From the NCBI GenBank assembly GCA_037441425.1, contig JBBISF010000005.1:6529-70528 (forward strand): DNA of 64,000 nucleotides, given 5' to 3'. The notes under the pieces are model-generated. The model was not told the DNA's origin and ran no database searches. It was given only the letters and a program-made list of their open reading frames with translations. Both the position numbers and the translations under genes were made by a program. Source of the stretch: Verrucomicrobiia bacterium (GTDB lineage Bacteria; Verrucomicrobiota; Verrucomicrobiia; Palsa-1439). This document shows positions 2,567-18,992 of the stretch, in pieces. Each line of letters opens with the position of its first letter. The stretch's first letter is position 1.

Positions 2567-3634
2567 CTACGAGTTGCTGGCCGCCAGCCGGCGCTGATAA
2601 TCGTCCGCCATCAGCGATTCAATCATCTCGTCCAAATCACCGTTCATGATGGCCGGGAGGTTTTGGATCGTGAGGTTGATGCGGTGGTCGGTGACGCGGT
2701 TCTGCGGGAAATTGTAGGTGCGGATTTTTTCGCTGCGGTCGGCGGTGCCGATCTGGCTACGACGAGCGGCGGTCATCTTGGCTTGTTCTTCTTCCTGTTT
2801 GTGGACAAGCAATCGGGAACGCAGCACGCGCAGGGCTTTGGCCTTGTTTTTGATTTGGGAGCGCTCGTCGGCGCAACGCACGATCAGGCCGCTGGGCTTG
2901 TGGTGAATCTGGACGGCGCTGTCGGTAGTGTTCACGCCCTGACCGCCGGGGCCGCTGGCGCGGCAGACGGTGATCTCCATATCCTCGGTCTTGAGTTGGA
3001 TGTCCACTTCTTCAGCTTCCGGGAGGACGGCGACGCTGGCGGTGCTGGTGTGAACACGGCCTTGCGCTTCGGTTTCCGGCACGCGCTGCACGCGATGGAC
3101 GCCGGACTCGTAGCGCAGTTTCTTATAAACATCCTGGCCTTGGACGCTGAAGACGATTTCCTTGAAGCCGCCGCGTTCGCTGGGACTGGTGTCCATGACT
3201 TCGATCTTCCAACGCTGCGTGTCGGCAAACCGCGCATACATCCGGTAAAGATCAGCCGCGAACAGCGCGGCTTCCTCGCCGCCGGTGCCGGCGCGGATTT
3301 CGACAATCGTGTTGCGCGAATCGTGCGGATCGGGCGGCACGATGCCGAGCTGGATGTTCTTGGAAAGCCGGTCAGACTCTTTGCGCAACTCGTCGAGTTC
3401 GCTCTTCGCGAGTTCCGCCATGTCCGGGTCGGCGAGGAGTTGTTCGTTCTCGGCGATCTGTTTCTGGACGGTTTGCCAACGCGCGTCGTCGGCCAGCGCC
3501 TGGTTCAGGCGTTGGAGTTCCCGAGCCAGTTCGCCGGCGCGCCGCTGGTCGGCGTACACCGCCGGATTGGCGAGCTCGTTCTGCAGCTCGGCCACCCGGT
3601 GGCGGAACTTTTCGATGGAGGGCGCAAAGTCCAT
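2567..3634 (-). CDS. prfA: peptide chain release factor 1
   Basis: GGQ motif (SGPGGQGVNTTDSAV) and RF1-type sequence throughout. The likely start is the internal ATG at 3634 (MDFAPSIEKF...); the ORF track extends to 3679. Confidence 0.95.
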   Translation of the reverse strand: MDFAPSIEKFRHRVAELQNELANPAVYADQRRAGELARELQRLNQALADDARWQTVQKQIAENEQLLADPDMAELAKSELDELRKESDRLSKNIQLGIVPPDPHDSRNTIVEIRAGTGGEEAALFAADLYRMYARFADTQRWKIEVMDTSPSERGGFKEIVFSVQGQDVYKKLRYESGVHRVQRVPETEAQGRVHTSTASVAVLPEAEEVDIQLKTEDMEITVCRASGPGGQGVNTTDSAVQIHHKPSGLIVRCADERSQIKNKAKALRVLRSRLLVHKQEEEQAKMTAARRSQIGTADRSEKIRTYNFPQNRVTDHRINLTIQNLPAIMNGDLDEMIESLMADDYQRRLAASNS

Positions 3635-3682
3635 AAAGACAAAACGGGCGCAAGCGGAAATGCCTGCGCCCGTCAGCAAACC

Positions 3683-3959: not shown

Positions 3960-5435
3960 TTGAGCTTCATGATACGTAATCTTAAGGCGCTGGCCAGCGG
4001 CGAGTTCGACGTGCTGGTGATTGGTGGCGGCATCTTCGGGGCCGGCATCGCCCGGGACGCCACGTTGCGTGGGCTGCGCGTCGCGCTGATTGATAAGGCC
4101 GACTTCGCGAGCGGCGCTTCCAGCCGGTCCACCAAACTCATCCATGGCGGTTTCCGGTATCTCGAACAAGCCGCAGTTGGCCTCGTTGCTGAGTCCTGCC
4201 GGGAGCGCCGCATCCTCCAAGAGATTGCGCCGCACCTGGTCAAACCGCAGTCATTTCTTTTCACAGTCTATGCGGGCGATTCCCGGCCCTTGTGGAAAAT
4301 CAATCTCGGCATGACGCTTTACGACCTGCTCGCCGCGTACCGGAATCCGGGACGACATCGCCGCTACGGACCGCGGCGCGCGCTCGCGCACGAACCCGCG
4401 CTCAACCGGCAAGGCCTGCAAGGCGCGGTGTTGTTCCATGATTGTCAGGAAGACGACGCGCGGTTCTGTCTCGATAATCTCTTCCATGCCGCCCAACACG
4501 GTGCAGTCTGCGCCAACTACTGTGCGCTGACCGGGTTCGTCAAAGAAGTCGACCGGCTGGCCGGGGCGCGCGTCACGGACGAATTGACCGGCGAATCCTT
4601 TCCCATTCGCGCCCGCGTCTTCATTAACGCCGCCGGCCCGTGGGCGGAACAAGTGGCGAACCTCGCCCCGTTGAATGGCCGGAATCTCCGCCTCAGTCCC
4701 ACCAAGGGGGTGCACTTGGTGTTGCCGCGCCTGACGGAGCGTCATGGCGTTTTCTTTCAGGCCCGCCGGGACGGCCGGCTCATCTTCGTAGTGCCGTGGC
4801 TGGATTGCTCGCTGCTTGGCTCCACGGATACGGATTTTACCGGCGACCCGGCCACGGCGGCAACCGAGCCGGCCGACATCGAATACCTGCTGACGGAATT
4901 GCGGACAGTCATGCCGGATGCGCGAATCCAGGCGTCGGACATCATCACGACCTTCGCGGGCGTGCGTCCCTTGCTGCATTCCTCCGCGCGCCCGTCCGCC
5001 CGCTCGCGCGAGGAACGCATCGTTTGGCACGGGAAGAATTTCATGTCTGTCGCCGGCGGCAAGTACACCACCTACCGGGCGGTTGCCGAACAGGTGGTGG
5101 ATCAGTTGGGTAAGCACCTTGAGCGTCGGTTGCCGGTCTGCGCGACTGCGACCACGCCCTTGCCGGAGCATCGTCCACCGGTGGCCGGCGAACAACTGGC
5201 GGATGTGCCGGAAGTTTACGCCAGCGACATTGACCACGCCTGCCGGGAGGAAATGGCCCTGACGTTATCCGATGTGATGCGGCGGCGCACGCCGTTGGCC
5301 TTGAGCCGGCACGGCGGGAAAGAAGTGGCGGAACGCGTGGCGCGTGTCATGGCCGCCGCGCTGGGCTGGAGTGAGGAATGGACCCGCCGGCAGGTGGACG
5401 ATTACCTCGCGGAGCGAACGCGGGGAACGTTATGA
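3960..5435 (+). CDS. glpD: FAD-dependent glycerol-3-phosphate dehydrogenase
   Basis: N-terminal FAD fold DVLVIGGGIFGAGIARDA with GlpD/GlpA-like sequence over 491 aa. Confidence 0.85.
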   Translation: MSFMIRNLKALASGEFDVLVIGGGIFGAGIARDATLRGLRVALIDKADFASGASSRSTKLIHGGFRYLEQAAVGLVAESCRERRILQEIAPHLVKPQSFLFTVYAGDSRPLWKINLGMTLYDLLAAYRNPGRHRRYGPRRALAHEPALNRQGLQGAVLFHDCQEDDARFCLDNLFHAAQHGAVCANYCALTGFVKEVDRLAGARVTDELTGESFPIRARVFINAAGPWAEQVANLAPLNGRNLRLSPTKGVHLVLPRLTERHGVFFQARRDGRLIFVVPWLDCSLLGSTDTDFTGDPATAATEPADIEYLLTELRTVMPDARIQASDIITTFAGVRPLLHSSARPSARSREERIVWHGKNFMSVAGGKYTTYRAVAEQVVDQLGKHLERRLPVCATATTPLPEHRPPVAGEQLADVPEVYASDIDHACREEMALTLSDVMRRRTPLALSRHGGKEVAERVARVMAAALGWSEEWTRRQVDDYLAERTRGTL

Positions 5436-6037
5436 CGCCATTGGTCATCGCGCATCGGGGGTGGAGCGCCCGGTATCTCGAGAACACGTGGCCGGCCATT
5501 CGCGCGGCGATCCGGTTGGGGGTGGACATGGTCGAGATTGACGTGCAACAGACGCGCGATGGGGAATTGGTGGTATTCCATGATTACCGGTTGGATCGGA
5601 TCTATGGCGTCCACAAACGCGTGCGCGCCGCCTTGCGAGAAGAAATGCCGGAGGCCCCGACGCTTGACGAAGTTTTGCGCTTAAACTTTCCGCTGCTCAT
5701 TGAAATCAAGGGCGCGGATCCGGAGCGCGTGGCGGCGGTGACGGGTGGGCGGAAGGATGTGATTGTATTTTCCGTCCATCCCGGCAAGGTGCGGCGGTTG
5801 ACCGACGTGACCCGGTTCGGACTTTCGGCGCGCTGGATTCGATTTCCCAAGGACGTGGCCGGGTTGGGCGTGAGTCGCCGGTTGATCAAGTCGCCGGCGG
5901 TCGTGCGGCGCATTCATGGCCGCGGATTGAAGTTGTTCGTGTGGACGGTGAATCAGTCGGAAGAGATGCGCCGGTTGCGCGACTGGGGCGTGGATGGGTT
6001 GATCACCGATCATCCCGACCGGGCGTTGCAAATCTGA
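5432..6037 (+). CDS. ugpQ: glycerophosphodiester phosphodiesterase (GDPD family)
   Basis: VIAHRGWSARYLENTWPA ... MVEIDVQQTRDG ... VVFHD are GDPD catalytic motifs. ATGA start/stop overlap with glpD at 5432-5435. Confidence 0.85.
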   Translation: MTPLVIAHRGWSARYLENTWPAIRAAIRLGVDMVEIDVQQTRDGELVVFHDYRLDRIYGVHKRVRAALREEMPEAPTLDEVLRLNFPLLIEIKGADPERVAAVTGGRKDVIVFSVHPGKVRRLTDVTRFGLSARWIRFPKDVAGLGVSRRLIKSPAVVRRIHGRGLKLFVWTVNQSEEMRRLRDWGVDGLITDHPDRALQI

Positions 6038-6054: not shown

Positions 6055-6417
6055 GTGGCCATGCTGCAAATTATTTTCAGTCCGGTGGGCGCCAAGGAAC
6101 TGGCGGCCATGCCGAAGAAACTGCAATTGGAATTGATTGACGGTTTTCAGTTGTTGCCGCGCGATTTCGAGAAGGCGGACGCGCATTTTGGTCAACTCAC
6201 GCGCGGTGGGAAAAAAGTCTATCGCTACCGGGTGAAGGACTACCGCATTTATTTCGACAAGGACGGCGACATGATCAATGTCCGGTGTGTTCTCAACAAG
6301 AACTCATTGAAGGATTTCTTTTACCGCTCGAAGCTGCCAATTTCCGAAGACCAACTCCTCCAGGAAAATCCCAAGTTCTGGGAGTTACTGGAGTCCAGCG
6401 CTACAGCGCCTTCGTAA
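6055..6417 (+). CDS. RelE/ParE-like toxin-fold protein (putative, orphan)
   Basis: The pattern IIFSPVGAKELAAMPKKLQ...GKKVYRYRVKDYRIYFDKDGDMINVRCVLNKN matches the RelE/ParE layout (...yRlRvgdyRiiY...v.il.i...). It has a roughly 30-aa C-terminal extension, no antitoxin ORF nearby, and lower GC (about 50%). Confidence 0.35.
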   Translation: MAMLQIIFSPVGAKELAAMPKKLQLELIDGFQLLPRDFEKADAHFGQLTRGGKKVYRYRVKDYRIYFDKDGDMINVRCVLNKNSLKDFFYRSKLPISEDQLLQENPKFWELLESSATAPS

Positions 6418-9400
6418 ACTCCGGCACGAGTTCGTACAAGTCCCCCACCAGCGGAATCACCTTGGGCCGTGCGCGGCGTTGATTCAGCGTCAGCAACGGC
6501 GCGTCGGCATCCTTGTTGAAGGCGATGATCAGCGCCCGTTCCCCGAGGTAATCCACGTGCTGCGGCGCACCGCTGACGCCAAGCGAGATGATCAACTTGG
6601 GATTCACCGCCGTGCCGGTTTGACCGATTTGACGGTCGGGCGTGAGCAGCTTGAGATCTTCCACCACCTTGCGTGTCCCGCCAATCATCACGTTCTGCAC
6701 TCCGATCTTTTCGAGGCGGTCCTTCAGGGGCAAAACGATCAAATCAAAATTCTCCCGGTTCCGGATGGCGTAACCGACATCAATGATCACATCCGCATCA
6801 GCCATCATGAGCGAACGCGCGCGCGCTTCCGCCTGTTTGGGCGGGGGGACGTATTCCAAGTCCAGCGGCACGCGGCAGACGCGTTTTGGCGCGACGGTCT
6901 TGTGCTGACTGCCGGCCGTAAACGTCGCCACCAGCGGATGTTCCTGGACGTTACCGATGGCGAACACGCGGTGCACGTTCCCGCCGAATACCGGCACGGC
7001 CAGTTCATGGTGCGCGATTGCCGCCACATTGTACCGGGCCTGCACGCGCGGGAACGTGCTCGCAAATTGCGCGAACACCTCATTCGCCCACGTCCCGCTG
7101 GCGAGCAGGGACGGCAACGTGTCCTTCCACAGGTATTGGGCGGCGGCGAGCACGCCTTCGGGCGAATCGTCGCGCAATTGCGCGTGCGTACAAAAGAACA
7201 CGGACGCCGCCGCCAGCCGTCCGGCCAATTCCCGGATCTGCTTCTCGTCAGGGTCGCCCACCACCACCACGTGAAACGGCAAACCCAAAGCGGCCGCACA
7301 TTCAGCGGCGGTTTCTGCGCCGTCGCAGTTGCCCGGTGTCGCCACGAACACCGCTGCGGCGCGCGCCGGCACAACTGATTGGTCTGCCGCCTCAATTTTG
7401 CCAGTATATTGCGCGTCGCCATCCGGGCCGGACGATTCCACCCCCGTCAACGCCCGTACCAACTTTGCCGCTGCGGCCGGCGTGGCGACGGTTGGTTGCT
7501 CCCCGGCCGTGACTGCCGGCAAAATAAGACGTGACGGGAACTTCGCGCTGGCGATTATTTGCGCGCTGGGAATGATCTCCAATGGTTTCGACTGAGCCGC
7601 GCAGAAGTCATCGACCGAGAAATTGTTGGCAGCGGTTGCTTCGGTGATGGCGCGGACCGGAGGCAGCCCGCCCAGATTGCTGTTCAAGATGGTGCAGAAC
7701 AGTGCCTCCCCGCATAACACCAAATCACATGAGGGCAGGTGCACGGCGATGTGATCGGCAATCAGTCGAGCAGTCGCATGGATGTCCTCTGGCAGGTCGT
7801 CGGCTTCCAGCAGCACGGCATCGGTTGCGCCGGCGGCCAGCGCGCGGCGGAGAAGTTCGGCGGCATAACGCGGTGCGACGGTCAGGATGGTGAGGCGGAC
7901 GGGTCGTCGCGACAGGCTTGTCGGGACTCCCACATCAAGCTCGAAGTGTGTCTCCAGTAGCTCGCCCTCCACCACGCGCGGTCGCGGTGAAAGAGCCGGC
8001 ACGACGTTGGCGACAACGACAATGTGTTGGGCCGGGGGTAGGATTGCCGGTTGCGGAGCGAGTGCCGGTTTATGTTCTGCTTCCTGCAGCGCGAGCATCG
8101 CAACACGGATTTCGGGTGGGTACAGACCTTGTTTGAGCAGCGCGCAGTCGCGGTCGAACTCGGAGAGGAGGCGCTGGATTTCCCGTTGAGCGCAATCGCA
8201 ATACCGGTCATAGGCCACTTCAGCCAATTGCCGGTGGGGGCTGTCCACAGCGGTCGTATTCTTCGTCAGCCATTGGGTGCGCCACCGGGCGGAATCCATG
8301 GCCTTCAGGTAGCCGGCCATTTCGGCGAGTTTGAACATCGCGGGTTGGAAATTCGCGTTTTGCCAGACTTGTTGACCGAAGGTTTCAACGGCTTGCCGGA
8401 GGCGATCAATCAGCGGGCTGGATTCCTTGGCGTTCGGAAGTGCTTTGTCCACGAGATCGCGCAGAATGAGAAACCGCTGCACTTCGTTCGTGCCTTCGTA
8501 AATGTTCAGCACCCGGGCGTCACGCCGGTGTTTTTCCAGTTCGTGCAATTGGGTGCCGCCTTCCAACCCGTAAATATTCTCCGCGGCCCGAATGACCCGG
8601 TGCAGAACTTCGCTGGCGTAGTATTTGCCGATGGCCGACTCGGTGCGGACGCTCTTCGTGTCGTGATGGTCGAACCGGCCAATCAACTCATACGCGAGCG
8701 ATTCAGTCGCGTAATGCTCGATGGTCATTTCGCCGACGAGTTGCTGGATGTGCGGTTCGTTCTCCAAGCCGCGTTCCCTTACGAATTGCCGGGTTTGCTC
8801 GATGATCTTGGCGGTCATCGCCGCGGCGCTGACGCAGAGGCCGGTGCGCCCGACGTTGAGGGTTTCCAGCGCGTTGACTTGGCCCCGGCCTTCGATGCCG
8901 ATGATGTTTTCCCGTGGGACGCGGACTCCGTTGAGGCTGAGTTCGTTGGTGGGCGAACCGCGCTGGCCCATCTTTTCTTCGTCGCGACCGACCTTCAGCC
9001 CTTCGGAATTGCGGCGGACAAGGAAACCGGTTGGGCCTTCTTTCGTGCGTGCGTACAAGCAAAACACGCCGGCCACGTGGCCGTTGGTGATCCACATCTT
9101 GGCGCCATTGAGTTCGTAGTACTCGTAGAATTCCCGGCCGCCTTCCTTCCGGATCTGCGCGATGTCGGCATCCGGTAGGTTGGCTATGTCCACGGTCGCC
9201 GCGTCCACGATGCCGCGGCGCTCTGTGCCGAGCCGGAAATACTTCGAGCCGTCAGAATTTGTGAAGACTTCGGCGCGCTTCAATTCGGCCCGGGTCTGAA
9301 TGCCACCGGAATCACTGCCGGCACTCGGCTCAGTCAGGGCAAAGGCGCTGATCTGACCGGCACTGATTAAACGCAGGAAGAATTTCGCGGCTTCTGCCCG

Positions 9401-12400
9401 GCGGTCGAGTTCGGCGATGACCATTTCCGCGCGCGGGCGTACGGTGTCCAATGCCGGCCCGCACGCCTGTAGCTCCGCTTTGAACTTCGGCAAGTCCATC
9501 CGCAGTCCAGCCCGTCCGGCATCCATGAAGTGCGTCAGAAATTCGCTCGCAATGGCGCGGAGCATCGGTTTCTTCCCGATGTCAGTTTTCACTTTTTTGC
9601 CGAGCGCGGTGAACGCGTCTTTGACTTTGAGCGCCGCCGGAGATTCGAGCATCCGCAGGAGATTGTGGATTGTGGATTTTAGATTTTGGATCAGGCCGGC
9701 CGCGGCGAGAAACTCTTGGAGGTCAGCTTCGGCGCGCGGCAAGTCTTGGTTCAGGCCGAGGAGGATGGGGGTTGTCCCGATGCTGGAGTGCGCCATGATG
9801 GTGAGCGCGTAACTCGGGTCGGCATACCGCATCGAAAGCGGGCAGAGGATGTAGTAATGGGCCTTGAGCAAGCCGGCGCCGCCGAACTCCTTCGGGATGT
9901 ACATGCGGGTGAAGCCGTGCGCGACCATGTCGTGAACGTCTGCAAGCGGGACTTGGTGGAGACGCTCGACGAGCCGGTAATATTTTTCGCCGGGGCGATA
10001 GACATAGCGCTCGGTGAAATGCCGGTAGAGTTGGTCGTGATAGGCGCGGAGTTCGGGGTCGGCGTGGAGCATTTCCGGAACGTAACGCCACGTCACCGGG
10101 TCGAAGGGCTTGGTAAGAAAATCGCCGTAGTCATAGGGATTGGGTTGGGCGAGTTCAGAGCGGTAGGAGAATGGGGGCGGGGATTGAAGTGGCTGTTCGA
10201 GGAGGTAGCCGCGGGTCAGGACGGTAGAGCCGAGTTCCGCGAGGTCGCGGCGCTGAGGCTGCGCCCACGTTTTGGTTTTCAGCAACTTGATGATTTCGAA
10301 ATCGAGTTCGGTCTGAGGTTCGGACGCGAGCGTCGGCGCACCGGCTGAAGGTTCTTCGTCGTCGAACAGCAAACGTGAGAAGACAACGCTGTCGCGATAG
10401 AACTTGGAGAAGATGTCGTCTTCGCTGTAGGCGCTGCCGCCGATGATTTGGCCGGCGTTGTACGCGAGCGTGAAGAAAGCTTCGCGGGGGTTGGCGGCAT
10501 TGTGACGGAGCTGCCAGACCTGCGCTTCCATTTCGCTGAGCATCTGTTTGACAGCGCCGAACTTGGCGATGCCATCGTGAGCGTCTTCGTCTTGGAACAG
10601 GCCGGGGAATTGGACGCGGCTCCGCGCGTGTTGCCGGCAGCGTTCCAATAACATTTCGCCGGCGCCGCGGACAATAGCGCGGCAATCGGCGGTCAGCGCG
10701 ACCGGGAACTCGCGGGCGTGGCGGCGGGCGGTGTTGAGGCCGATCCATTCGACGTCGGCCAAGTCTGGGCGGGCGGTGATTTGGGCGTGGGCGATGCCGG
10801 AGACGAGGAGCGCGAGCGAGACGTCGCGCGCGGCGAGGGCGCGGAGAATGTCCGGTGTGGGCTGAAGAGACTTGAGAAAGGCGAGTTGGTCGGCGGTGAG
10901 GCGCGCGCCGCGTTCGAGGTCTTTGATGGATTGTTTGGTGAAGTGGTGCTCAATTCCGGATTCGGTTGTGAGGTCCTTCGCTTCGCTCAGGAAGACCGAT
11001 GGGGAAGGGGCGAGGTGTTTCTGTACCTCCGCTTCCGCCCAGAAGAACTTGCCGGCTTTGGCATAAGCGAGGGCGCGGTCACAACCGGAATCTTCCAGCA
11101 GGGAGAGCAGCCATTGGCGCCGGCCGGTGTCGAGGTAGCGCGGGCCGGAATGGATCGAAGTGCAAAACTGCTGCAACTTCTCGTGGGAGCGGCGTCCCCG
11201 CCGCGATTCGGGGACCTGTCGCGGCGGGGATGCCGCTCCCACCATACCGGAGTTTAGAACCGCCAGCAGCTTGCGGTTAGCCGGTGTGGGCGAACTGAAG
11301 ACCAAACGCTGTTCGCGGTGCCGGGTCCAGTCCACGTCAGCAGGGGCGGCGCGCCAGCAGGTTTCGCATTTGATGCAGTTCTCGAAGTGCACCACGATCT
11401 GCACTTGGCCGAGATCGTCGGTGTGTTGCTCGTACACTTTGGCGGGACAGACGTGCCACAATGGTGAGTCGGCGAGTTTGCGGCGATCTTCAAAATGCTC
11501 GGGACGCTGCACTTTGATATGGCTGGTCTTCTCGGAGGAATACCGGATGAGGGAAAGTTTTTCTTCGATCGGCTGCGCGAGCGGGACGGCGTCGAGATTG
11601 GCGCGTTGCCGGACGAGGGCGAGGGTGCGTTGGTAGAAGGAGGACAGGTATTTTTCGGGGGAGGGTCGGGTGACGAGCAGCCCGATCATTTCGCAAAGCC
11701 ATTGGAAAGGCGCGAGCAGCGCCGTGAGGAAGGGCCACCCGCCGAGCGACCAGGGGCGCGGGGCGGAACGCAAGGCGTGGCGCAGCTTGACCGGCAAAGG
11801 CGTATCGTCATTGCGATAAGGGTGATCGCAAGCGGAACGCAGACGGGACGCGAGCTTCTGAAAACGGGGTTGGCCGTTGATGGAAATGGAGACTGCGCCG
11901 GCGTGTCGGAGTGCTGGCGCGCGTGAGGAACCGGCGCGCTGGAGACCGAGGGCGGCGCGTTGTTGCCGCAGGTCGCGGAAGAATTCGCCCCAGCGTTTGG
12001 GCGGGAGCGTTTCGCGGAGGAACTTGGCTTGTTGCCAGAGTTTCTGGCCGGGGCGGAGATCGGGATGCGTGGCGATATGCAGCGCGCCGCAGGCGAGATC
12101 GGCGGCGCGGCCGAAGAAGACGCGCGTGTGGGCGACGTAGTGCGGCCAGTCTTGGAGGAATTCGACGTTCTGGAAATAGTGCGTTTGCCGGAGCGGCTTT
12201 TCGTAGAGTTCGGTGAGATGTTCCCGGCGGAAATCGCCGTGGGCTTGTCGGACGGCTTGGGCGAACAGGCGGCCCATCGCGGTGGCGGGACCGGTATAGT
12301 TGGGGAATGGGAAATCGAGGCCGATGCCGGTGCACGCCCCGCCGAGCGCGAGACCGTGGTCGACGAGTTGGGGGAGTTCCCGGAAGCCGCCGCCGCGGAT

Positions 12401-13255
12401 GAGCTTCGCGCCGTAGGCAACGGCGCGTCCGCCGCCGGTGAGGCGTTGGATTTCCGGCAGCGATTTGAACCACTCCATCAGCCGGTTGTGATCGCCTTTG
12501 AATTCGCGCGCGAGGTTGTCGAGCGGCATCACGAGGCCCAGCGAGAGGCTGGAATGGTTGGTGTAGATGAACCCGCCCATGTTGAGTTGCAGCTTGCCGG
12601 GATTGCGCAGGATGATTTCGTAAGCCGCGCCTTCACCCGGCGGAAGGGCAAACCGGGATTCGATTTCGGCAGGATCGAGTTCGATGACTTCTTTGATGCC
12701 TTGAAGAAAATGGGGGGTGTTGTTCGGGCAGCGTTCGTAGCCTTCCTTGGTGACGAGATGCGAGGCGTCGCCTTCAGCGAGAAAGACAACGGCGGCGTAA
12801 ATCGGGCCACGCGTGGTGTGGACGCCGATCACTTTGCCGGCCGAGTCGCGCAGCAAGCCGGTCGCGGTGGTTTCGGTGAGGATGGTGGCGCCGAAAGATT
12901 TGGCCAGTTCGGCAAGATAATGGTCGTATGTCGGACGGAGAACGGTGTAGCAATGCCGGAAGGTGTCGGGGTTGTGATAGGTCAGGCCGACGAGTGTGTG
13001 GCCGTTGTAGAGATGGATACCGCGTTTGGTGACGGGCCGTTCCCAAGCGGATGCACGAACCGCTTCCTCGCCGAGCACGTCCGGCTGGGCGAGGTTCTCG
13101 GTGAAATAGACGGCGCCCGACCAGTTCTCCGCGCCGGGGAATTTGCCGGCTTCGAGAACGAGGACGGGAATCTGCGCTTTGGCGAGAGCGATGGCGGCGG
13201 TGATCCCGGCGGGGCCAGCGCCAACGATGACAACATCGTATTTCCAATCGGCCAT
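6401..13255 (-). CDS. 2301-aa multidomain flavoprotein fusing ETF:quinone oxidoreductase (FAD plus 4Fe-4S), acyl-CoA dehydrogenase, ETF-beta (FixA-like) and ETF-alpha (FixB-like) domains
   Basis: Residue numbers follow the track ORF starting at 13306. The likely start is the ATG at 13255 (MADWKYDVVIVGAGPAGITAA, a dinucleotide-binding motif). ETF-QO covers about residues 18-670 and ends with the 4Fe-4S signature WHVCPAKVYE...NCIKCETC. The ACAD core covers about residues 1080-1620 (FALTEPSAGSDSGG; MWITNGHVAGVFCLYART; VLNIYEGTNEVQRFLILRDL). ETF-beta-like covers about 1760-1960 (HIVVVANVVP...DLVLCGEALF). ETF-alpha covers about 1975-2301 (ISLGVSGAPQHVDYLGERALIIAFNKDADAP...VGDLYELVPEF). One frame with no stop across 6.9 kb. 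Confidence 0.85.
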   Translation of the reverse strand: MADWKYDVVIVGAGPAGITAAIALAKAQIPVLVLEAGKFPGAENWSGAVYFTENLAQPDVLGEEAVRASAWERPVTKRGIHLYNGHTLVGLTYHNPDTFRHCYTVLRPTYDHYLAELAKSFGATILTETTATGLLRDSAGKVIGVHTTRGPIYAAVVFLAEGDASHLVTKEGYERCPNNTPHFLQGIKEVIELDPAEIESRFALPPGEGAAYEIILRNPGKLQLNMGGFIYTNHSSLSLGLVMPLDNLAREFKGDHNRLMEWFKSLPEIQRLTGGGRAVAYGAKLIRGGGFRELPQLVDHGLALGGACTGIGLDFPFPNYTGPATAMGRLFAQAVRQAHGDFRREHLTELYEKPLRQTHYFQNVEFLQDWPHYVAHTRVFFGRAADLACGALHIATHPDLRPGQKLWQQAKFLRETLPPKRWGEFFRDLRQQRAALGLQRAGSSRAPALRHAGAVSISINGQPRFQKLASRLRSACDHPYRNDDTPLPVKLRHALRSAPRPWSLGGWPFLTALLAPFQWLCEMIGLLVTRPSPEKYLSSFYQRTLALVRQRANLDAVPLAQPIEEKLSLIRYSSEKTSHIKVQRPEHFEDRRKLADSPLWHVCPAKVYEQHTDDLGQVQIVVHFENCIKCETCWRAAPADVDWTRHREQRLVFSSPTPANRKLLAVLNSGMVGAASPPRQVPESRRGRRSHEKLQQFCTSIHSGPRYLDTGRRQWLLSLLEDSGCDRALAYAKAGKFFWAEAEVQKHLAPSPSVFLSEAKDLTTESGIEHHFTKQSIKDLERGARLTADQLAFLKSLQPTPDILRALAARDVSLALLVSGIAHAQITARPDLADVEWIGLNTARRHAREFPVALTADCRAIVRGAGEMLLERCRQHARSRVQFPGLFQDEDAHDGIAKFGAVKQMLSEMEAQVWQLRHNAANPREAFFTLAYNAGQIIGGSAYSEDDIFSKFYRDSVVFSRLLFDDEEPSAGAPTLASEPQTELDFEIIKLLKTKTWAQPQRRDLAELGSTVLTRGYLLEQPLQSPPPFSYRSELAQPNPYDYGDFLTKPFDPVTWRYVPEMLHADPELRAYHDQLYRHFTERYVYRPGEKYYRLVERLHQVPLADVHDMVAHGFTRMYIPKEFGGAGLLKAHYYILCPLSMRYADPSYALTIMAHSSIGTTPILLGLNQDLPRAEADLQEFLAAAGLIQNLKSTIHNLLRMLESPAALKVKDAFTALGKKVKTDIGKKPMLRAIASEFLTHFMDAGRAGLRMDLPKFKAELQACGPALDTVRPRAEMVIAELDRRAEAAKFFLRLISAGQISAFALTEPSAGSDSGGIQTRAELKRAEVFTNSDGSKYFRLGTERRGIVDAATVDIANLPDADIAQIRKEGGREFYEYYELNGAKMWITNGHVAGVFCLYARTKEGPTGFLVRRNSEGLKVGRDEEKMGQRGSPTNELSLNGVRVPRENIIGIEGRGQVNALETLNVGRTGLCVSAAAMTAKIIEQTRQFVRERGLENEPHIQQLVGEMTIEHYATESLAYELIGRFDHHDTKSVRTESAIGKYYASEVLHRVIRAAENIYGLEGGTQLHELEKHRRDARVLNIYEGTNEVQRFLILRDLVDKALPNAKESSPLIDRLRQAVETFGQQVWQNANFQPAMFKLAEMAGYLKAMDSARWRTQWLTKNTTAVDSPHRQLAEVAYDRYCDCAQREIQRLLSEFDRDCALLKQGLYPPEIRVAMLALQEAEHKPALAPQPAILPPAQHIVVVANVVPALSPRPRVVEGELLETHFELDVGVPTSLSRRPVRLTILTVAPRYAAELLRRALAAGATDAVLLEADDLPEDIHATARLIADHIAVHLPSCDLVLCGEALFCTILNSNLGGLPPVRAITEATAANNFSVDDFCAAQSKPLEIIPSAQIIASAKFPSRLILPAVTAGEQPTVATPAAAAKLVRALTGVESSGPDGDAQYTGKIEAADQSVVPARAAAVFVATPGNCDGAETAAECAAALGLPFHVVVVGDPDEKQIRELAGRLAAASVFFCTHAQLRDDSPEGVLAAAQYLWKDTLPSLLASGTWANEVFAQFASTFPRVQARYNVAAIAHHELAVPVFGGNVHRVFAIGNVQEHPLVATFTAGSQHKTVAPKRVCRVPLDLEYVPPPKQAEARARSLMMADADVIIDVGYAIRNRENFDLIVLPLKDRLEKIGVQNVMIGGTRKVVEDLKLLTPDRQIGQTGTAVNPKLIISLGVSGAPQHVDYLGERALIIAFNKDADAPLLTLNQRRARPKVIPLVGDLYELVPEFTKAL

Positions 13256-13292
13256 CGAAAGGAATATAGTTCGCGGTGAGAGGAGAACAAAG

Positions 13293-14726
13293 ATGAAATT
13301 TTTCAAATGGATGGCGGTGCTGTTGCTGGCAGCAGTCGTGGCGCGTGCCGCGGAGAACCAAGACGAAGGCGTGGCGCTGACGATTTACAACCAGAACTTT
13401 GGCGTGGTGCGGGAGAAACGTAACGTCGAAGTGCCGGATAAACTGGGCGCGATCCGGTTCGGCGACGTGGCGGCGCAGATTGACGGCACGAGCGTGCAGT
13501 TCAAGTCGTTGACCGATCCGACGGCGACGGTGCTGGAACAGAACTACGAATACGACCTCGTCTCCGCTGACAAGCTCTTGCAGAAGTACATTGATAAGCA
13601 GATCACGGTGTTGACCAAGGATGGTTCACGGTATTCCGGTAATCTGTTGAGCTTCGATGGAAATCAACTGGTCATCCGGCAGTTTGGTGAGAAGGGCGAT
13701 CTGGTGATGGTCCAGCGCGGCGACAACGTGAAAGACATCGAGTTCGGTGCATTACCGGAAGGACTAATCACCAAGCCAACGCTGGTGTGGAAGCTGGCGA
13801 CGGAGAAGCCCGGCAAGCAGTTGATCGAGGTGGCCTATCAGACGGGCGGCCTGAATTGGTATGCCGACTACAATGCCGTGTTGAATGCGAAGGATACGCA
13901 GATGGATTTTGCCGGTTGGGTGACGATTGAGAACAAGTCGGGAGCGACTTACAAGGATGCACGGCTAAAGCTCATTGCCGGAGATGTGCGTCGGGTGCAA
14001 CCGATGGCACAGGGCACGATGCCGTTGAAAATGGCGCTATCGGAGGCAGCTCCTGCGCCCGGTTTCGAGGAAAAGGCATTCTTTGAATATCACCTCTACA
14101 CGTTGCAGCGGGCAACAACGGTTGCCGAGAACCAGACGAAGCAGATTGAGTTGTTGAAGACGGCGGATGTGCCGGTGAAGAAGGTTTACCTTTACGATGG
14201 TGCACCGCAGTTTAGGTTTTACGGTGGACTGAATACCAACGCCGGCTACGGCAGTGAGGAGTCGAACAAGAAGGTCAACGTCATCATCGAGGTTAAGAAT
14301 TCCCAGGAAAATCACATGGGCATGGCGTTGCCAAAGGGGAAGGTCCGGCTTTACAAACGCGACGAGGCGGATAAATCACTGGAGTTCATCGGTGAGGATG
14401 AGATTGATCACACGCCCAAAGACGAGACGATCAAGCTGCATGTTGGCGATGCGTTTGACGTGGTCGGGGAGCGGAAGCGCACCGACTTCAAAGTGGACAA
14501 CGCCGCCCACTGGATGACCGAGAGCTTCGAGATTCGCGGTCGCAATCACAAGGATGAGCCGGTCGAAGTGCTGGTCAAGGAGACGTTGTACCGGTGGAAT
14601 AACTGGGAGATCACCCAGGCCAGCCACAAGTGGACGAAATTCGATTCCAACACGATTCACTTCCCGGTGAAAGTCGACAAGGACGGCGAACAGGTCATCA
14701 CCTACACGGTCCGATACACGTGGTAA
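13293..14726 (+). CDS. secreted DUF4139/DUF4140-like protein (paralog 1 of 4)
   Basis: Signal peptide MKFFKWMAVLLLAAVVARA with AGGAGA 7 nt upstream of the ATG at 13293. It shares the architecture and motifs of the paralogs at 53478, 55765 and 56933 (TIYN..., ...GGLNWYADY..., C-terminal ...TVRYTW). The track ORF extends upstream to 13143. Confidence 0.75.
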   Translation: MKFFKWMAVLLLAAVVARAAENQDEGVALTIYNQNFGVVREKRNVEVPDKLGAIRFGDVAAQIDGTSVQFKSLTDPTATVLEQNYEYDLVSADKLLQKYIDKQITVLTKDGSRYSGNLLSFDGNQLVIRQFGEKGDLVMVQRGDNVKDIEFGALPEGLITKPTLVWKLATEKPGKQLIEVAYQTGGLNWYADYNAVLNAKDTQMDFAGWVTIENKSGATYKDARLKLIAGDVRRVQPMAQGTMPLKMALSEAAPAPGFEEKAFFEYHLYTLQRATTVAENQTKQIELLKTADVPVKKVYLYDGAPQFRFYGGLNTNAGYGSEESNKKVNVIIEVKNSQENHMGMALPKGKVRLYKRDEADKSLEFIGEDEIDHTPKDETIKLHVGDAFDVVGERKRTDFKVDNAAHWMTESFEIRGRNHKDEPVEVLVKETLYRWNNWEITQASHKWTKFDSNTIHFPVKVDKDGEQVITYTVRYTW

Positions 14727-15049
14727 ACGAATCGCTCAATAATCCATTTGTACGGCTTTCCGGTGAGGGTTTGCCGGCCGGGCCGGTGTCCAAACCAGCT
14801 AAACTGGGTCGGGTGGTGCTGCGGCGTGAGACCGCCCACCGCGGCGGCAAAACGGTTGTGGTGGTTTACGATTTCGCCGCACACGTTCCGATCGCCAAGA
14901 TTGAAGAGTATGCGAGTCAACTCAAGAAGACTTGCGGCTGTGGTGGCACGGTGAAGGGCCGCGAGATCGAGATTCAAGGTGATCAACCCGGCAAGATTCG
15001 GGCACTGCTCGAAGCGGAGGGGTTTCAAGTGGCCGGCGTGCGCTCATGA
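14720..15049 (+). CDS. yciH: translation initiation factor SUI1/YciH family
   Basis: LKKTCGCGGTVKGREIEIQGDQPGKIRALLEAEGFQVAG matches the SUI1 core (KKCGCGGAVKDG.IEIQGD). A GTG start at 14720 gives 109 aa, the YciH-like length, and overlaps the upstream gene by 7 nt. Confidence 0.75.
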   Translation: MVNESLNNPFVRLSGEGLPAGPVSKPAKLGRVVLRRETAHRGGKTVVVVYDFAAHVPIAKIEEYASQLKKTCGCGGTVKGREIEIQGDQPGKIRALLEAEGFQVAGVRS

Positions 15050-15777
15050 ACGCCCGGTGTCTGCAAGGCGACGCGACTTTGGCAACAACCTGGTCGGCAG
15101 CGCTGAGCACTGAGCGGGCCGCGGCACTGATTACCGACCCGCCGTATTGCTTGCTGACCCGGCGGCGCAAAGATGGTGATTTGCGCGATCCGAAAGGTCG
15201 CAAGCTCGACGCCGGGCCGGTCCGACGATTCGAAACCGTGCGCGATTACCGTGCGTTCACCCGGGCGTGGATGACACACGCCGTCCGTTGGGTGACGGAG
15301 CAAGCGCCACTGGTGATTTGGAGTAACCTGTTGGGCAAAGAACCAATCACCACAACCGCACGCGAACTCGGCTGGACGTATTGCCGGGGAGAGTTCATCT
15401 GGGGAAAACGCACGCGCGAGGGGAACTCCGGTGAAGAAATCCTTCGAGTGGTGGAAACGGCGTTGGTGTTTACGCGCACCCCGGCACCAAGTCCGACCGT
15501 TGCCGACGCCGCGCCGCCGTGGTCAGTCGTTGCCGGTTACGATGACGACGGCGAGGGCGCACGGTGGGGCAATCACCCCAATCACAAGCCATTCCGGGTG
15601 CTCGAACCGTTGATCCGGACCTGGAGTCGTCCCGGTGATTTGATTGTTGATCCCTTTGCCGGCAGCGGTTCAATACCGGTTGCCGCCGTGCGCTTGAACC
15701 GGCGCGCCGTCAGCTTTGAGCTTGAGGCCGAATGGGCCGCGCGGACGAACAAACGATTGGCGCAGACGCCTGTCTGA
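15046..15777 (+). CDS. beta-class DNA methyltransferase (N6-adenine or N4-cytosine), no cognate nuclease nearby
   Basis: Motif IV ALITDPPY sits near the N-terminus and motif I DLIVDPFAGSGS near the C-terminus, the beta-class order. 243 aa. The ATG overlaps the yciH stop (ATGA at 15046-15049). Confidence 0.75.
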   Translation: MNARCLQGDATLATTWSAALSTERAAALITDPPYCLLTRRRKDGDLRDPKGRKLDAGPVRRFETVRDYRAFTRAWMTHAVRWVTEQAPLVIWSNLLGKEPITTTARELGWTYCRGEFIWGKRTREGNSGEEILRVVETALVFTRTPAPSPTVADAAPPWSVVAGYDDDGEGARWGNHPNHKPFRVLEPLIRTWSRPGDLIVDPFAGSGSIPVAAVRLNRRAVSFELEAEWAARTNKRLAQTPV

Positions 15778-16452: not shown

Positions 16453-17385
16453 TTGCCCGCTCAAGATTCTTCGTGTCCTTCGCGACTTCGTGGTAAAACT
16501 CTCCCCGTGACTTCAGCATCCAACTTCAAATCCGGTCTGGCCGTCCTCGTCGGACGCACCAACGTAGGCAAGTCCACGCTGCTCAACGTGCTCGTCGGCA
16601 CGAAGATCGCCATCGTCACGCCGAAACCGCAGACGACGCGCGACACCTACCACGGCATCGTCCACCGCCCGGAAGGGCAGATCGTGTTCGTGGACACGCC
16701 CGGCATCTTCAAGACCGAACCGAGCAAACTCGTCCAGAACCTCCATCACCGGGTGCGCGACGCGGTGGAAGGAATTGATGTCATCGTCCACGTGGCTGAT
16801 CCGACGCGTCCGCCCGGTCCCGAAGACCGGCGGGTCTGCGACCTGATCGCGCGGATCGGCCAGCCCAAGATTCTCGCTCTCAACAAACTCGACGAACCCA
16901 ATCGCCCGTTTCGCGGCTACTGGATGGAACGTGGTCCGCAGTACGTTTCTGTCGTCGAGCTTTCGGCATTGAAAGGGAAGAATATTGATCTCCTCGTGAA
17001 CGCCATTCTGCGCCACTTGCCGGTTGGTCCGCCGCAGTACCCGGAGGGACAGGTCAGCAACGTCACCAACGAGTTTTGGATTGCCGAATTGATCCGCGAG
17101 AAAATCTATCTGCAAACCGGCCAGGAAGTCCCATACTCGACGAACGTCCAATTGGAACAAGTCGAAGATCGCAAGGACAAAGCCGGCCAGCCATTGCTCT
17201 ACATCAAGGCCGCGATCCTGACCACCCACGAACGCTATCAGCGGATGCTCATCGGCCAAGGCGGCAAAAAGATCAAAGAGATCGGCAGCGCCGCCCGCCG
17301 GGAACTGGAAGTCGCCATGAACCGCAAAGTCTTCCTCGATCTCGCCGTGCTGGTGGATGAGGAATGGATGGAGCGGATGCAGTAG
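16453..17385 (+). CDS. era: GTPase Era
   Basis: G1 VGRTNVGKSTLLN, G3 DTPG, G4 NKLD and a C-terminal KH domain. The start may be the GTG near 16507 rather than 16453. Confidence 0.9.
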   Translation: MPAQDSSCPSRLRGKTLPVTSASNFKSGLAVLVGRTNVGKSTLLNVLVGTKIAIVTPKPQTTRDTYHGIVHRPEGQIVFVDTPGIFKTEPSKLVQNLHHRVRDAVEGIDVIVHVADPTRPPGPEDRRVCDLIARIGQPKILALNKLDEPNRPFRGYWMERGPQYVSVVELSALKGKNIDLLVNAILRHLPVGPPQYPEGQVSNVTNEFWIAELIREKIYLQTGQEVPYSTNVQLEQVEDRKDKAGQPLLYIKAAILTTHERYQRMLIGQGGKKIKEIGSAARRELEVAMNRKVFLDLAVLVDEEWMERMQ

Positions 17386-17411: not shown

Positions 17412-17488
17412 TGGAGCGAGCGAAGGGATTCGAACCCTCGACATTCACCTTGGCAAGGTGACGCTCTACCGGACTGAGCTACGCTCGC
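17412..17488 (-). tRNA. tRNA-Gly (anticodon GCC)
   Basis: The reverse complement folds as a cloverleaf: acceptor GCGAGCG/CGCTCGC, D-arm GCTC/GAGC, anticodon stem TCACC/GGTGA with loop TTGCCAA (anticodon GCC), T-arm GAGGG-TTCGAAT-CCCTT, then discriminator T and CCA. Confidence 0.85.
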
Positions 17489-17546: not shown

Positions 17547-18992
17547 TTGACTCGCCCGCGGCCCACGCGGCGTTCGTTGGGTTTGCCAGCCGGCGGAGGA
17601 TTATGGCAACATACCGGGAACGTGACGACACGAGCGTTTTTCCTCATGTTGGCGGGTGTGTTGTGTTTGGGCCAGATGCCAGCCGGCCCGCCAGAAGTAC
17701 CGGCAAGGCCCCTCGACAAATGGTTCGCGGCCGATGGCCAGCTTTGGCAATCGTCGCCAGATGAATTCCTAGCGCAGCATCGTCAGGACGGATTCCGGAT
17801 GGTGGCGGAGGGCGCGTCGGCGGCGCGTAGTATGAACCCGGAAATGACGTTCCTTGGGTTCAAGGTATGGGAGGCGATTGTGCGTTTCGAGAGCAATTCG
17901 GTCAGCGAGGTGACGTTCTCGCTGTACAACCGCGGCGATGCGGGGGAGTGGACGGTGGGCCAGTTCGAGTCGTTCATGGGCAAGCTGAATCATCAGCTCA
18001 CCGCTTGGGCTGGCGACAAGGGGGTCCAGATGCGCGCGGAGGAACGCACGGCAGCGGTCACGTTGAATCGCAAGTTGTGGGTGCGTCCGCCGCAACAGGT
18101 CGAGATGATTTGGAGTTTTACCGCCAAGAGCAAAGTACAAGGTACGGCTGCGCCTCGTCCGGAATTCGCGCGGGTGCAACTGACCCGGTTTGATCCCGCA
18201 CACGACCCGCGCAAGTTGGTGTTCGCCACCGCCACGTTACCGGGGATGCCAATGACCATTTTGGATTTGCGCGCCCGCGTCAAACAGGCCGGCACCGGCG
18301 ACGTGCTGATCGACAGTGTGCCGATGGTGGATCAGGGCCAAAAAGGTTACTGCGCGGCCGCCGTCGCGGAGCGCATTTTGCGGTACTACGGACGAAACGT
18401 GGACGAGCACGAGATTGCCCAACTGGCCAACACCACCGCCGAAAACGGCACCAACCCGGATCAGATGATCACCGCATTGCGCCGCATCAGCGGCGACCTC
18501 GGTCTGGACGTCACGGTTCACGAAGATTTCAACCTGAAAGACTTCGAGAAGCTTATCAACGACTACAACCGCGCCGCCCACCGGGTGGGTCGGCCGGAGT
18601 TGCAATACAAGACGCAGATCGGCAACACGATTTACATCGAGTCACCGGTGGTGATCTATCAACAGATGGATACCGCCTTGTTGAAGGAGGTTCGGATCAA
18701 GCGCGACGCGGCCATGGCGCGATTCCTGACCGACATCGAGCACTTCATCAACAACGGCGTGCCGCTGGCGTGGGCGGTCATGGTCGGCAAACTGCCGGAG
18801 AAACCCAACGTCCACCTCGTCGGGATCGGTGCCCACATGCGGTTGATCATCGGTTACAACGACCGCGCGAAGGAAATTCTCTACACCGACACATGGGGGC
18901 CGGGTCACGAAGAGAAACGCATGTCGCTGGCGGACGCCTGGACGATCACCCTCGGTCTTTACAGCGTCCAGCCGAGCGACATCCGGTTCTAA
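17547..18992 (+). CDS. secreted/membrane-anchored protein with C-terminal C39-like (papain-fold) cysteine peptidase domain
   Basis: VDQGQKGYCAAAVAERILRYYG resembles the C39 Cys motif (Q..CG.A.L.M...YYG), followed by a His region GIGAHMRLIIGY. The N-terminal hydrophobic segment LMLAGVLCLG suggests a signal or anchor. Start is uncertain (17547 or downstream). Confidence 0.65.
   Translation: MTRPRPTRRSLGLPAGGGLWQHTGNVTTRAFFLMLAGVLCLGQMPAGPPEVPARPLDKWFAADGQLWQSSPDEFLAQHRQDGFRMVAEGASAARSMNPEMTFLGFKVWEAIVRFESNSVSEVTFSLYNRGDAGEWTVGQFESFMGKLNHQLTAWAGDKGVQMRAEERTAAVTLNRKLWVRPPQQVEMIWSFTAKSKVQGTAAPRPEFARVQLTRFDPAHDPRKLVFATATLPGMPMTILDLRARVKQAGTGDVLIDSVPMVDQGQKGYCAAAVAERILRYYGRNVDEHEIAQLANTTAENGTNPDQMITALRRISGDLGLDVTVHEDFNLKDFEKLINDYNRAAHRVGRPELQYKTQIGNTIYIESPVVIYQQMDTALLKEVRIKRDAAMARFLTDIEHFINNGVPLAWAVMVGKLPEKPNVHLVGIGAHMRLIIGYNDRAKEILYTDTWGPGHEEKRMSLADAWTITLGLYSVQPSDIRF

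Follow-up and report, generated by a model that had tools for sequence, protein, structure and literature searches.

Our analysis of a 64,000-nucleotide stretch of DNA from a Verrucomicrobiia bacterium (GenBank assembly GCA_037441425.1, contig JBBISF010000005.1, positions 6,529 to 70,528 of the forward strand; hereafter, the window) revealed a minus-strand gene at 6401..13255 that joins, on one polypeptide, a quinone reductase, two acyl-CoA dehydrogenase (ACAD) modules, and both subunits (EtfB and EtfA) of an electron transfer flavoprotein (ETF). We have very little doubt that this fusion is real and conserved. The searches and alignments described below show directly which modules are present and in what order, whether each cofactor site is intact or degenerate, and that the fusion is conserved across phyla. 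As to its function, we consider it reasonably probable, if well short of settled, that the window protein is a linear, non-bifurcating, self-contained acyl-CoA:quinone oxidoreductase.

RESULTS

One uninterrupted gene with five modules

An earlier note on this DNA, made from the nucleotide sequence and a list of its open reading frames (ORFs), had described a single uninterrupted minus-strand frame of about 6.9 kb and 2301 amino acids (aa), and this description was borne out. The ORF listing gives one frame of 2301 aa from a TTG at window positions 6401-13306, and its translation contains zero internal stops; the end coordinate given in the note, 13255, corresponds to the probable ATG. Because homologs open with 'MxxxxYDVVIVGAGPAG' and a public protein identical to the window product (P0001) is 2284 aa long, the true start is most likely this ATG at 13255. 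The N terminus enters the Rossmann fold directly, and a signal peptide is therefore unexpected.

All of the motifs cited previously are present in the translation (DVVIVGAGPAGITAA, CPAKVYE...NCIKCETC, FALTEPSAGSD, MWITNGH, YEGTNEVQRFLI, SLGVSGAPQH, and VGDLYELVPEF). The proposed order, from quinone reductase through ACAD to both ETF subunits on one polypeptide, is upheld by hidden Markov model, profile-to-PDB, and fold evidence, and Pfam and NCBIfam searches recovered FAD oxidoreductase/FixC, Fer4_ETF_QO, three ACAD domains, and ETF_alpha (FAD, flavin adenine dinucleotide). Profile and fold searches confirmed all four modules of the earlier note, which had, however, left aa ~646-1040 unassigned and overlooked a fifth module there, a degenerate ACAD at aa ~770-965. 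The gene and its parts, all on the minus strand, are as follows (pLDDT, predicted local distance difference test).

6401..13255, minus strand: fusion coding sequence, 2284 aa from the ATG at 13255; stop codon at 6401-6403; the mechanical ORF reaches the TTG at 13306
12056..13255, minus strand: FixC/EtfC-type FAD quinone reductase domain, aa 1-400; GxGxxG (G12/G14/G17) invariant, high conservation
11570..12055, minus strand: family-specific insert, aa 401-562, between the FixC and Fe-S domains; no Pfam match
11321..11569, minus strand: FixX/ETF-QO-type ferredoxin-like domain, aa 563-645 (Pfam Fer4_ETF_QO); C603, C627, C630, C633
10361..10948, minus strand: pseudo-ACAD, aa ~770-965; N-terminal helices and C-terminal helical domain kept, middle beta-domain deleted in this lineage
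8426..10138, minus strand: catalytic ACAD, aa ~1040-1610; large helical insertions at aa ~1166-1300 and ~1320-1380
8051..8425, minus strand: helical linker, aa 1611-1735; no Pfam match; predicted helices with pLDDT ~90 (model residues 10-124)
7376..8050, minus strand: EtfB-like module (ETF domain III), aa ~1736-1960; fold kept, degenerate, low conservation
6836..7375, minus strand: EtfA domain I, aa ~1961-2140; poorly conserved; V2087 at the position of the conserved ETF Arg ('TRPAFGG' in CarE and C. difficile EtfA)
6404..6835, minus strand: EtfA domain II (mobile electron-transfer FAD domain), aa ~2141-2284; Pfam ETF_alpha, 1.5e-15

Distribution and conservation of the fusion

Among 5.8 billion proteins searched (E <= 1e-10), 488 were homologs, more than 100 of which span the whole query at lengths of 2,200-2,950 aa. 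Identity to the query is 58-70% in proteins labeled Verrucomicrobiae and 35-45% in other lineages, Gemmataceae among them. When one genome per GTDB species was scanned, relatives turned up in 114 species, and the figures given here for loci refer to the best 80 of these 114. Carriers among these 80, with taxonomy inferred from the source names of the homologs and from the genome scan, are Acidobacteriota, Planctomycetota, Verrucomicrobiota, and Gemmatimonadota, plus two metagenome-assembled genomes (MAGs) labeled Alcaligenaceae. About 55 of the loci hold a single uninterrupted ORF of 2,500-3,050 codons, and nearly all others end at contig edges. Further, of 1.84 billion cluster representatives, only 110 matched (E <= 1e-30) a profile built from the middle region that is specific to this family. 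In all of the long hits, this region begins at residue ~690-735, which argues that the pseudo-ACAD occurs only inside the fusion. Judged from these homologs, the fusion family is real, rare, and old. In public annotations, its members carry generic labels ('acyl-CoA dehydrogenase family protein' or 'electron transfer flavoprotein-quinone oxidoreductase').

Conservation was assessed in an alignment of 47 diverse family members, to which all counts of invariance given here refer. It is high in the FixC domain, the Fe-S motif, the C-domain of the pseudo-ACAD (aa 880-955), the ACAD core, and EtfA domain II, and it is lowest (0.4-0.5) over EtfB and EtfA domain I, with zero invariant columns from aa 1809 to 2154. 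The window protein is among the most reduced members of the family.

The earlier note had raised the concern of assembly or frameshift artifacts, which the orthologous frames dispel. That the fusion is an assembly chimera, a set of adjacent genes joined through sequencing errors, or a decaying pseudogene has a probability that we place close to nil. Shorter ORFs do occur at some related loci (L079, 1500 codons; L080, 2151; L083, 1096), and the window protein has lineage-specific deletions in its EtfB and pseudo-ACAD modules; but these deletions are in frame and common to the entire clade, the same unbroken architecture recurs in more than 100 proteins and in the ~55 complete loci, from independent assemblies and four phyla, and catalytic and cofactor residues are invariant although the sequences share only 35-70% identity. 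Homolog numbers, uninterrupted ORFs, and residue conservation together rule out assembly error, frameshift fusion, and pseudogene decay.

All of the best 80 of 114 loci come from MAGs, with no cultured isolate among them. The two in MAGs labeled Alcaligenaceae (Proteobacteria) are full or near full length (L039, 2830 codons; L059, 2725 codons), and mis-binning or horizontal transfer is possible for both. L079, L080, and L083, all from Verrucomicrobiae MAGs, have their short longest ORFs even though the contig goes on, and either assembly frameshifts or genuine splits are possible there.

The quinone-reductase half

The N-terminal 400 residues match PRK10015 (1.5e-47) and FixC (4.4e-43) in NCBIfam, both far under the curated full-length cut-offs. 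Against the PDB, aa 5-399 match the T. maritima EtfABCX chain 7koe_C at 9e-39 (136.7 bits), versus 3e-11 (45.7 bits) for pig ETF:quinone oxidoreductase (ETF-QO; 2gmh_A). The ferredoxin-like domain that follows matches Fer4_ETF_QO at 1.2e-6 (29.1 bits; cut-off, 24) and 7koe_D at 1.6e-5. Its four cysteines are invariant in 47/47 members and align one-to-one with the cluster ligands of ETF-QO 2gmh; hence, they would suffice for one [4Fe-4S] cluster. The layout, a FAD domain with a C-terminal 4-Cys [4Fe-4S] domain on the same chain, is that of ETF-QO, rather than that of a separate small FixX subunit partnered with bifurcating FixAB, as the Fe-S domain is fused behind the 160-aa insert and has only four Cys. 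Where a complete ETF-QO had been proposed at the N terminus, then, the aligned 4-Cys cluster stands, whereas the module as a whole, by the PDB scores above, is FixC+FixX-like, not mitochondrial ETF-QO-like.

The ubiquinone-binding domain of ETF-QO is not recognizable in this module; the corresponding region is the family-specific insert, which has no family match. This insert contains a hydrophobic segment (aa 505-528; nucleotides 11672-11743) whose hydrophobicity is kept in aligned homologs of all clades, and aa 510-528 are the second most hydrophobic 19-mer of the protein (Kyte-Doolittle, 1.67). The segment is a candidate monotopic membrane or quinone-site anchor, and the product would be cytoplasmic and probably membrane-associated.

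A catalytic ACAD and a degenerate second module

The complete three-domain ACAD fold (N-terminal helical, middle beta, and C-terminal helical) is present at aa ~1040-1610, with all three Pfam domains above their gathering scores (Acyl-CoA_dh_N, 4e-8; Acyl-CoA_dh_M, 6.8e-18; Acyl-CoA_dh_1, 9.1e-27). This module also matches NCBIfam FadE (1.2e-53), C. difficile Bcd (5ol2_C, 4.5e-18), and CarC (6fah_C, 1.4e-17), and Foldseek aligned its predicted model with 5ol2_C at E 5e-10 and a TM score of 0.72. TEPxAGSD (T1308-D1315), MWITN (W1388-T1390), and the catalytic base E1587 (YEGTNEVQ) are invariant in 47/47 members, and the E1587 motif aligns with 'IYEGTSEVQR' of Bcd. The module is without R-x-Q-F-G and Q-x-x-G-G motifs of its own: it has 'FVRERGLENEP', with a 5-residue deletion, at Bcd YVKERVQFGRPLSKFQ and 'ENIYGLEGG' at Bcd 'VQLHGGYGY'.

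Taken alone, the upstream pseudo-ACAD region gave a sub-threshold match to Pfam Acyl-CoA_dh_1 (0.0046). A ten-sequence family profile, in turn, matched 2dvl_A in the PDB at 2.5e-9, covering ACAD residues 68-367, together with very-long-chain acyl-CoA dehydrogenase (VLCAD), CarC, and the heteromeric ChsE chain 4x28_D. On the strength of these matches, we assign aa ~770-965 as a degenerate second ACAD. A profile-profile comparison (hhalign) of the middle region with the catalytic ACAD of the same protein gave only E 0.016 and a probability of 2.8%. The region measures 740-780 aa, with a beta-barrel middle domain, in Acidobacteriota and Planctomycetota and 432 aa, with the beta-domain deleted, in the clade of the window. 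It lacks the catalytic Glu, having FYRDSVVFSRLLFDD (FSRLLFDD) at the site of the ACAD 'RDAxIxxIYEGT', and it holds invariant R880-V-Q-F883-P-G, G-Q936-x-x-G939-G940, and Y953-R954-D955.

The two ACAD modules have thus decayed in a complementary manner, the pseudo-ACAD keeping RVQF and Q..GG without the Glu and the catalytic ACAD keeping the Glu without RVQFG and Q..GG. The corresponding residues in medium-chain acyl-CoA dehydrogenase (MCAD) are what we take to be R281, F284, Q349, and G353, the C-domain motifs that touch the ADP part of the FAD of the neighboring subunit in ACAD dimers. A similar division of labor exists in the alpha2beta2 ACADs of mycobacterial steroid catabolism (ChsE4-ChsE5), where alpha provides the isoalloxazine, Glu, and substrate site, while beta touches the ADP-ribose of the FAD (PMC11153573). 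The fusion shows the same split in its sequence: one half has the active site, and the other lacks the base but has the motifs for contact with the FAD of its partner. The complementary decay matches the ChsE4-ChsE5 division of labor, and on its simplest reading the fusion holds an alpha/beta ACAD pair within one chain, sharing a single FAD and a single active site, with the pseudo-ACAD probably serving as a built-in beta subunit that completes the one ACAD FAD site.

An ETF half with one intact flavin site

The single-sequence evidence for EtfB was weak (TIGR04503, 3e-7). The family profile matched CarD (2.4e-23), A. fermentans 4kpu_B (5e-23), M. methylotrophus 1o94_C (6e-22), the T. maritima EtfB chain 7koe_A (2.6e-16), and the Paracoccus and human EtfB chains, and Foldseek matched the predicted structure to EtfB chains at E 1e-7 to 1e-5. 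For EtfA, full-length profile alignments were obtained with CarE (1.2e-32) and C. difficile EtfA 5ol2_A (4e-29), and the profile also matched T. maritima EtfA 7koe_B (8.5e-25). An AlphaFold2 model of the EtfB-EtfA region (pLDDT, 79) matched both EtfA and EtfB chains in Foldseek.

Within EtfA domain II, R2195, QIGQTG (Q2209-G2214), SGAPQH (S2228-H2233), and FNxDxxAP (F2246/N2247/D2249/A2252/P2253) are invariant or conserved in at least 46 of 47 members. R2195 aligns with the 'SR' Arg of CarE, and the domain II motifs align with CarE and 5ol2_A. By these residues, domain II retains a complete electron-transfer FAD site.

The second nucleotide site of the ETF base, in EtfB and EtfA domain I, presents a different picture in the window protein. 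We compared it with the motifs that define the bifurcating ETF group, as given in PMC8958531 and as read from alignments with solved structures. According to PMC8958531, T94 and T97 of bifurcating EtfB hydrogen-bond the ribose of the bifurcating FAD, and a T94,97A variant takes AMP instead; the same paper reports that ETFs share a highly conserved EtfA Arg (R165 in R. palustris ETF), which the second site needs in order to bind either FAD or AMP. The nucleotide-binding loop of EtfB (G-x-Q-A-I-D-x-D-x-x-Q-x-G), equivalent to GRQAIDGDTAQVG in A. fermentans and GKQAIDDDCNQTG in human EtfB, is deleted in the window protein ('LCGEA---LFCTILNSNLG') and throughout its clade. The 'ADT94LAT97' motif of A. 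fermentans EtfB is absent in all clades, with EDIHATARL in the window protein and no conserved Thr pair in the alignment columns. At the column equivalent to Arg165 of EtfA, most members have T/S/V. The window EtfB also lacks a ~30-aa helix after 'HFELD' and a beta-hairpin, both of which are present in the close relatives P0002, P0008, and P0012. Because the loop is deleted, the Thr motif absent, and the EtfA Arg lost, we conclude that the ETF base of the window protein is most plausibly a nucleotide-free scaffold, and that the protein would carry three flavins, not four. The EtfB module proposed by the earlier note is therefore confirmed in its fold but appears to be a vestigial scaffold here, and inspection for bifurcation-type motifs found none.

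Genomic neighborhood

The gene-neighborhood analysis found no ETF, ferredoxin, or beta-oxidation genes recurring beside the fusion gene, which appears to be monocistronic. The sole recurrent neighbors, each seen in two contexts (the window and a related locus, L002), are a divergent DUF4139 gene and, close by, a GlpD/GDPD pair. In the window, the DUF4139 gene (13143-14726, plus strand; likely start at 13293) has a weak LSM match and a signal-peptide-like N terminus (MKFFKWMAVLLLAAVVARAAEN), and its ATG is divergent from that of the fusion, with a gap of 37 bp; at L002, the DUF4139 gene (8429-9889) is likewise the divergent neighbor of the fusion homolog. Downstream and convergent in the window are a GlpD-type FAD glycerol-3-phosphate dehydrogenase (DAO + DAO_C; 3960-5435, plus strand) and a glycerophosphodiester phosphodiesterase (GDPD; 5378-6037, plus strand), and the same pair at L002 (26178-27431) lies ~9 kb from the fusion homolog. 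These neighbors hint, weakly, at a loose thematic link to phospholipid/lipid catabolism.

A scan for promoters and terminators gave counts at chance level. A hairpin with a T-run (TCCCAGAACTTGGGA TTTTCC) lies at 6369-6383 of the window (minus strand), 18 nucleotides past the fusion stop, and is a plausible terminator, though such sites occur at chance frequency. Other features of the window, none with an evident link to the fusion gene, are as follows.

2567-3679, minus strand: peptide chain release factor (PCRF + RF-1)
15046-15777, plus strand: N4/N6 DNA methyltransferase
16453-17385, plus strand: Era-like GTPase (MMR_HSR1 + KH_2)
17412-17488, minus strand: tRNA-Gly(GCC)
17547-18992, plus strand: peptidase C39-like protein

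DISCUSSION

A proposed linear path of electrons and its alternatives

In the path that we propose for the window protein, an acyl-CoA would be dehydrogenated at the sole functional ACAD site, with E1587 as the base and FAD no. 1 as the acceptor, while the pseudo-ACAD upstream, in the role of a beta subunit built into the chain, would touch the ADP-ribose of this FAD in trans. Electrons would exit singly via FAD no. 2 on the mobile EtfA domain II, which would swing between the ACAD and the FixX-like [4Fe-4S] domain; from the cluster, they would pass to the FixC-type FAD (FAD no. 3) and on to quinone at the membrane surface. The EtfB/EtfA-domain-I base would be kept as scaffold and hinge only, without AMP or a bifurcating FAD. 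The cofactor sites along this path are invariant in the 47 members (FixC GxGxxG, the four Cys, ACAD TEPxAGSD/WITN/YEG, and EtfA R2195/QIGQTG/SGAPQH), and the closest solved relatives of the modules offer docking precedents for ETF domain II on an ACAD (5ol2) and on FixX/FixC (7koe). The neighboring GlpD-like and GDPD genes, adjacent in the window and within 10 kb at L002, fit a setting of oxidative lipid catabolism. In this scheme, the course of the electrons from acyl-CoA to quinone, the choice of quinone, the packing of the pseudo-dimer, the association with the membrane, and the acyl-CoA substrate are all inferred. Because the carrier phyla are, to our knowledge, all menaquinone-only, the acceptor is probably menaquinone.

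Several points weigh against this interpretation. The best ACAD family scores are far under curated cut-offs, with no equivalog near, and do not point to a substrate. The candidate membrane anchor depends on one borderline hydrophobic segment (aa 505-528). An AlphaFold2 model covering aa 760-1640 has low confidence (pLDDT, 66; predicted TM score, 0.49) and confirms no more than the ACAD fold, which leaves the packing of the pseudo-dimer a prediction. Further, with menaquinone at about -74 mV and the acyl-CoA/enoyl-CoA couple at about -10 mV, the transfer of electrons from acyl-CoA to menaquinone would be mildly uphill, so the direction is not self-evident and a reversed path stays alive. Finally, for the ETF, ACAD, and FixC modules alike, the nearest solved structures are subunits of bifurcating complexes, and the long forms of Acidobacteriota and Planctomycetota keep the EtfB loop as 'GxxAxDTGQG'.

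An alternative is that the wire runs the other way, as a menaquinol:enoyl-CoA reductase for which an enoyl-CoA (for example, of the crotonyl-, acryloyl-, or caffeyl-type) would be a respiratory sink, in the manner of fumarate reductase; we regard this as unlikely. Menaquinone thermodynamics favor it (-74 mV to about -10 mV) in phyla that we know only as menaquinone users, several of the MAGs are from peat or palsa soils, and the nearest solved or curated ACAD relatives include the reductive enzymes C. difficile Bcd, CarC, and the acryloyl-CoA reductase AcrC. Against it, the recurring neighbors GlpD and GDPD are oxidative catabolic genes, the cultured members of the carrier phyla are mostly aerobic heterotrophs, and the sequence does not fix the direction, with no reductive-pathway genes linked. 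Less probable again is the intramolecular bifurcating machine that the earlier note had set beside an acyl-CoA:quinone oxidoreductase as the second of two possible functions, which we hold to be improbable. In such a hybrid of FixABCX and Bcd-EtfAB, a bifurcating FAD in the EtfB/EtfA base would be reduced by NADH and would send one electron through EtfA domain II toward quinone and/or enoyl-CoA, while the second electron would reach ferredoxin or flavodoxin. The parentage of the modules speaks for it (CarE/CarD, C. difficile EtfAB-Bcd, and T. maritima EtfABCX), as do the loop retained in the long forms of Acidobacteriota and Planctomycetia and the bifurcating behavior of a fused EtfB-EtfA from Sulfolobus (PMC12042025). 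It is disfavored for the window protein because the determinants of the bifurcating-FAD/AMP site are missing: the EtfB loop is deleted throughout the clade, the ribose-binding Thr motif is absent in all clades, and the Arg needed for nucleotide binding (PMC8958531) is not conserved, being V2087 here. Moreover, conservation along the protein is lowest in the ETF base, where aa 1809-2154 include not a single invariant residue, and no ferredoxin or flavodoxin gene recurs near the fusion gene. Of the two functions named in the earlier note, then, the acyl-CoA:quinone oxidoreductase is the one that we favor for the window protein. A broader proposal, which we find rather doubtful, is that the family, or at least those long forms in Acidobacteriota/Planctomycetota that keep the loop and a complete second ACAD, comprises a one-polypeptide energy-coupling enzyme, either bifurcating/confurcating or a menaquinol:enoyl-CoA reductase. 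If true, it would answer the mismatch between -10 mV and -74 mV in menaquinone-only phyla.

Comparison with known systems

The building blocks of the fusion are each known, from the ACAD-ETF-ETF-QO chain, EtfABCX/FixABCX, Bcd-EtfAB/CarCDE, the alpha2beta2 ACADs, and fused EtfB-EtfA. The canonical chain of mitochondria and proteobacteria, ACAD to EtfAB to ETF-QO (MCAD:ETF, 1t9g/2a1t; ETF-QO, 2gmh), has the same redox modules and the same proposed order of electrons, and it resembles the fusion in having an ETF with one functional (electron-transfer) FAD and a 4-Cys [4Fe-4S] domain to which that of the fusion aligns. The fusion departs from it in being one 2,284-aa chain, in having a FixC-type quinone reductase (137 versus 46 bits), and in having lost the AMP site of the ETF base; in addition, its ACAD would be an intramolecular alpha/beta pair, not a homotetramer, and its acceptor probably menaquinone, not ubiquinone. 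The EtfABCX/FixABCX complexes (T. maritima, 7koe) include the closest solved relative of the N-terminal FAD and Fe-S domains, with EtfA and EtfB also related, and the EtfABCX structure displays the hand-over from ETF domain II to FixX, FixC, and menaquinone. Unlike the fusion, however, EtfABCX consists of four separate subunits, none of them an ACAD, and uses a second FAD in its ETF base to bifurcate electrons from NADH, whereas the fusion lacks the determinants of the second FAD and has only one 4-Cys motif.

The best solved matches for the catalytic ACAD and for EtfA/EtfB are Bcd-EtfAB and CarCDE (5ol2 and 6fah), in which ETF domain II is seen docked on the ACAD. Unlike the fusion, these are soluble, multi-subunit, NADH-dependent bifurcating enoyl-CoA reductases without a quinone reductase, and each has a homotetrameric ACAD in which the R-x-Q-F-G and Q-x-x-G-G motifs are intact. 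The alpha2beta2 ACADs (ChsE4-ChsE5 and ChsE1-ChsE2; 4x28) divide labor as the fusion does between aa ~1040-1610 and ~770-965; in the fusion, by contrast, both halves lie on one chain between the FixCX and ETF modules, and the beta-like half of the window protein has no beta-barrel. Similarly, the ETF of Sulfolobus acidocaldarius (SaETF), described in 2025 as the first biochemically characterized monomeric ETF, has EtfB and then EtfA on one polypeptide, as in the fusion, but it is a stand-alone protein of ~600 aa with two FADs that behaves as a bifurcating ETF (PMC12042025), whereas in the fusion EtfB-EtfA makes up the C-terminal third of the 2,284 aa and has no second nucleotide site. The earlier note did not recognize the architecture as characterized, and we likewise found no published account of the complete covalent assembly, of the pseudo-ACAD, or of a nucleotide-free ETF base, within an incomplete coverage of the literature that makes this an absence of evidence only.

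Implications

ACAD, ETF, and ETF-QO are a standard example of a diffusible electron relay that works through transient complexes. The architecture of the fusion family, though its parts are well understood, is striking and invites experiments, and it occurs in phyla that have received little study. As a covalent relay of ~250 kDa with a predicted three FADs and one [4Fe-4S] cluster, it would be a good object for cryo-electron microscopy and kinetics, and it could reveal how the swinging FAD domain of ETF alternates between donor and acceptor without dissociation of partners. It also illustrates how far a tethered ETF base and one ACAD protomer can be stripped, with the nucleotide site lost and the beta-barrel deleted in the window protein. 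Recognition of the family matters for annotation as well, given that the gene now carries only generic labels such as 'acyl-CoA dehydrogenase family protein'. The carrier phyla are abundant in soil and water and use menaquinone, and the family bears on how electrons from beta-oxidation enter the low-potential quinone pool of these phyla.

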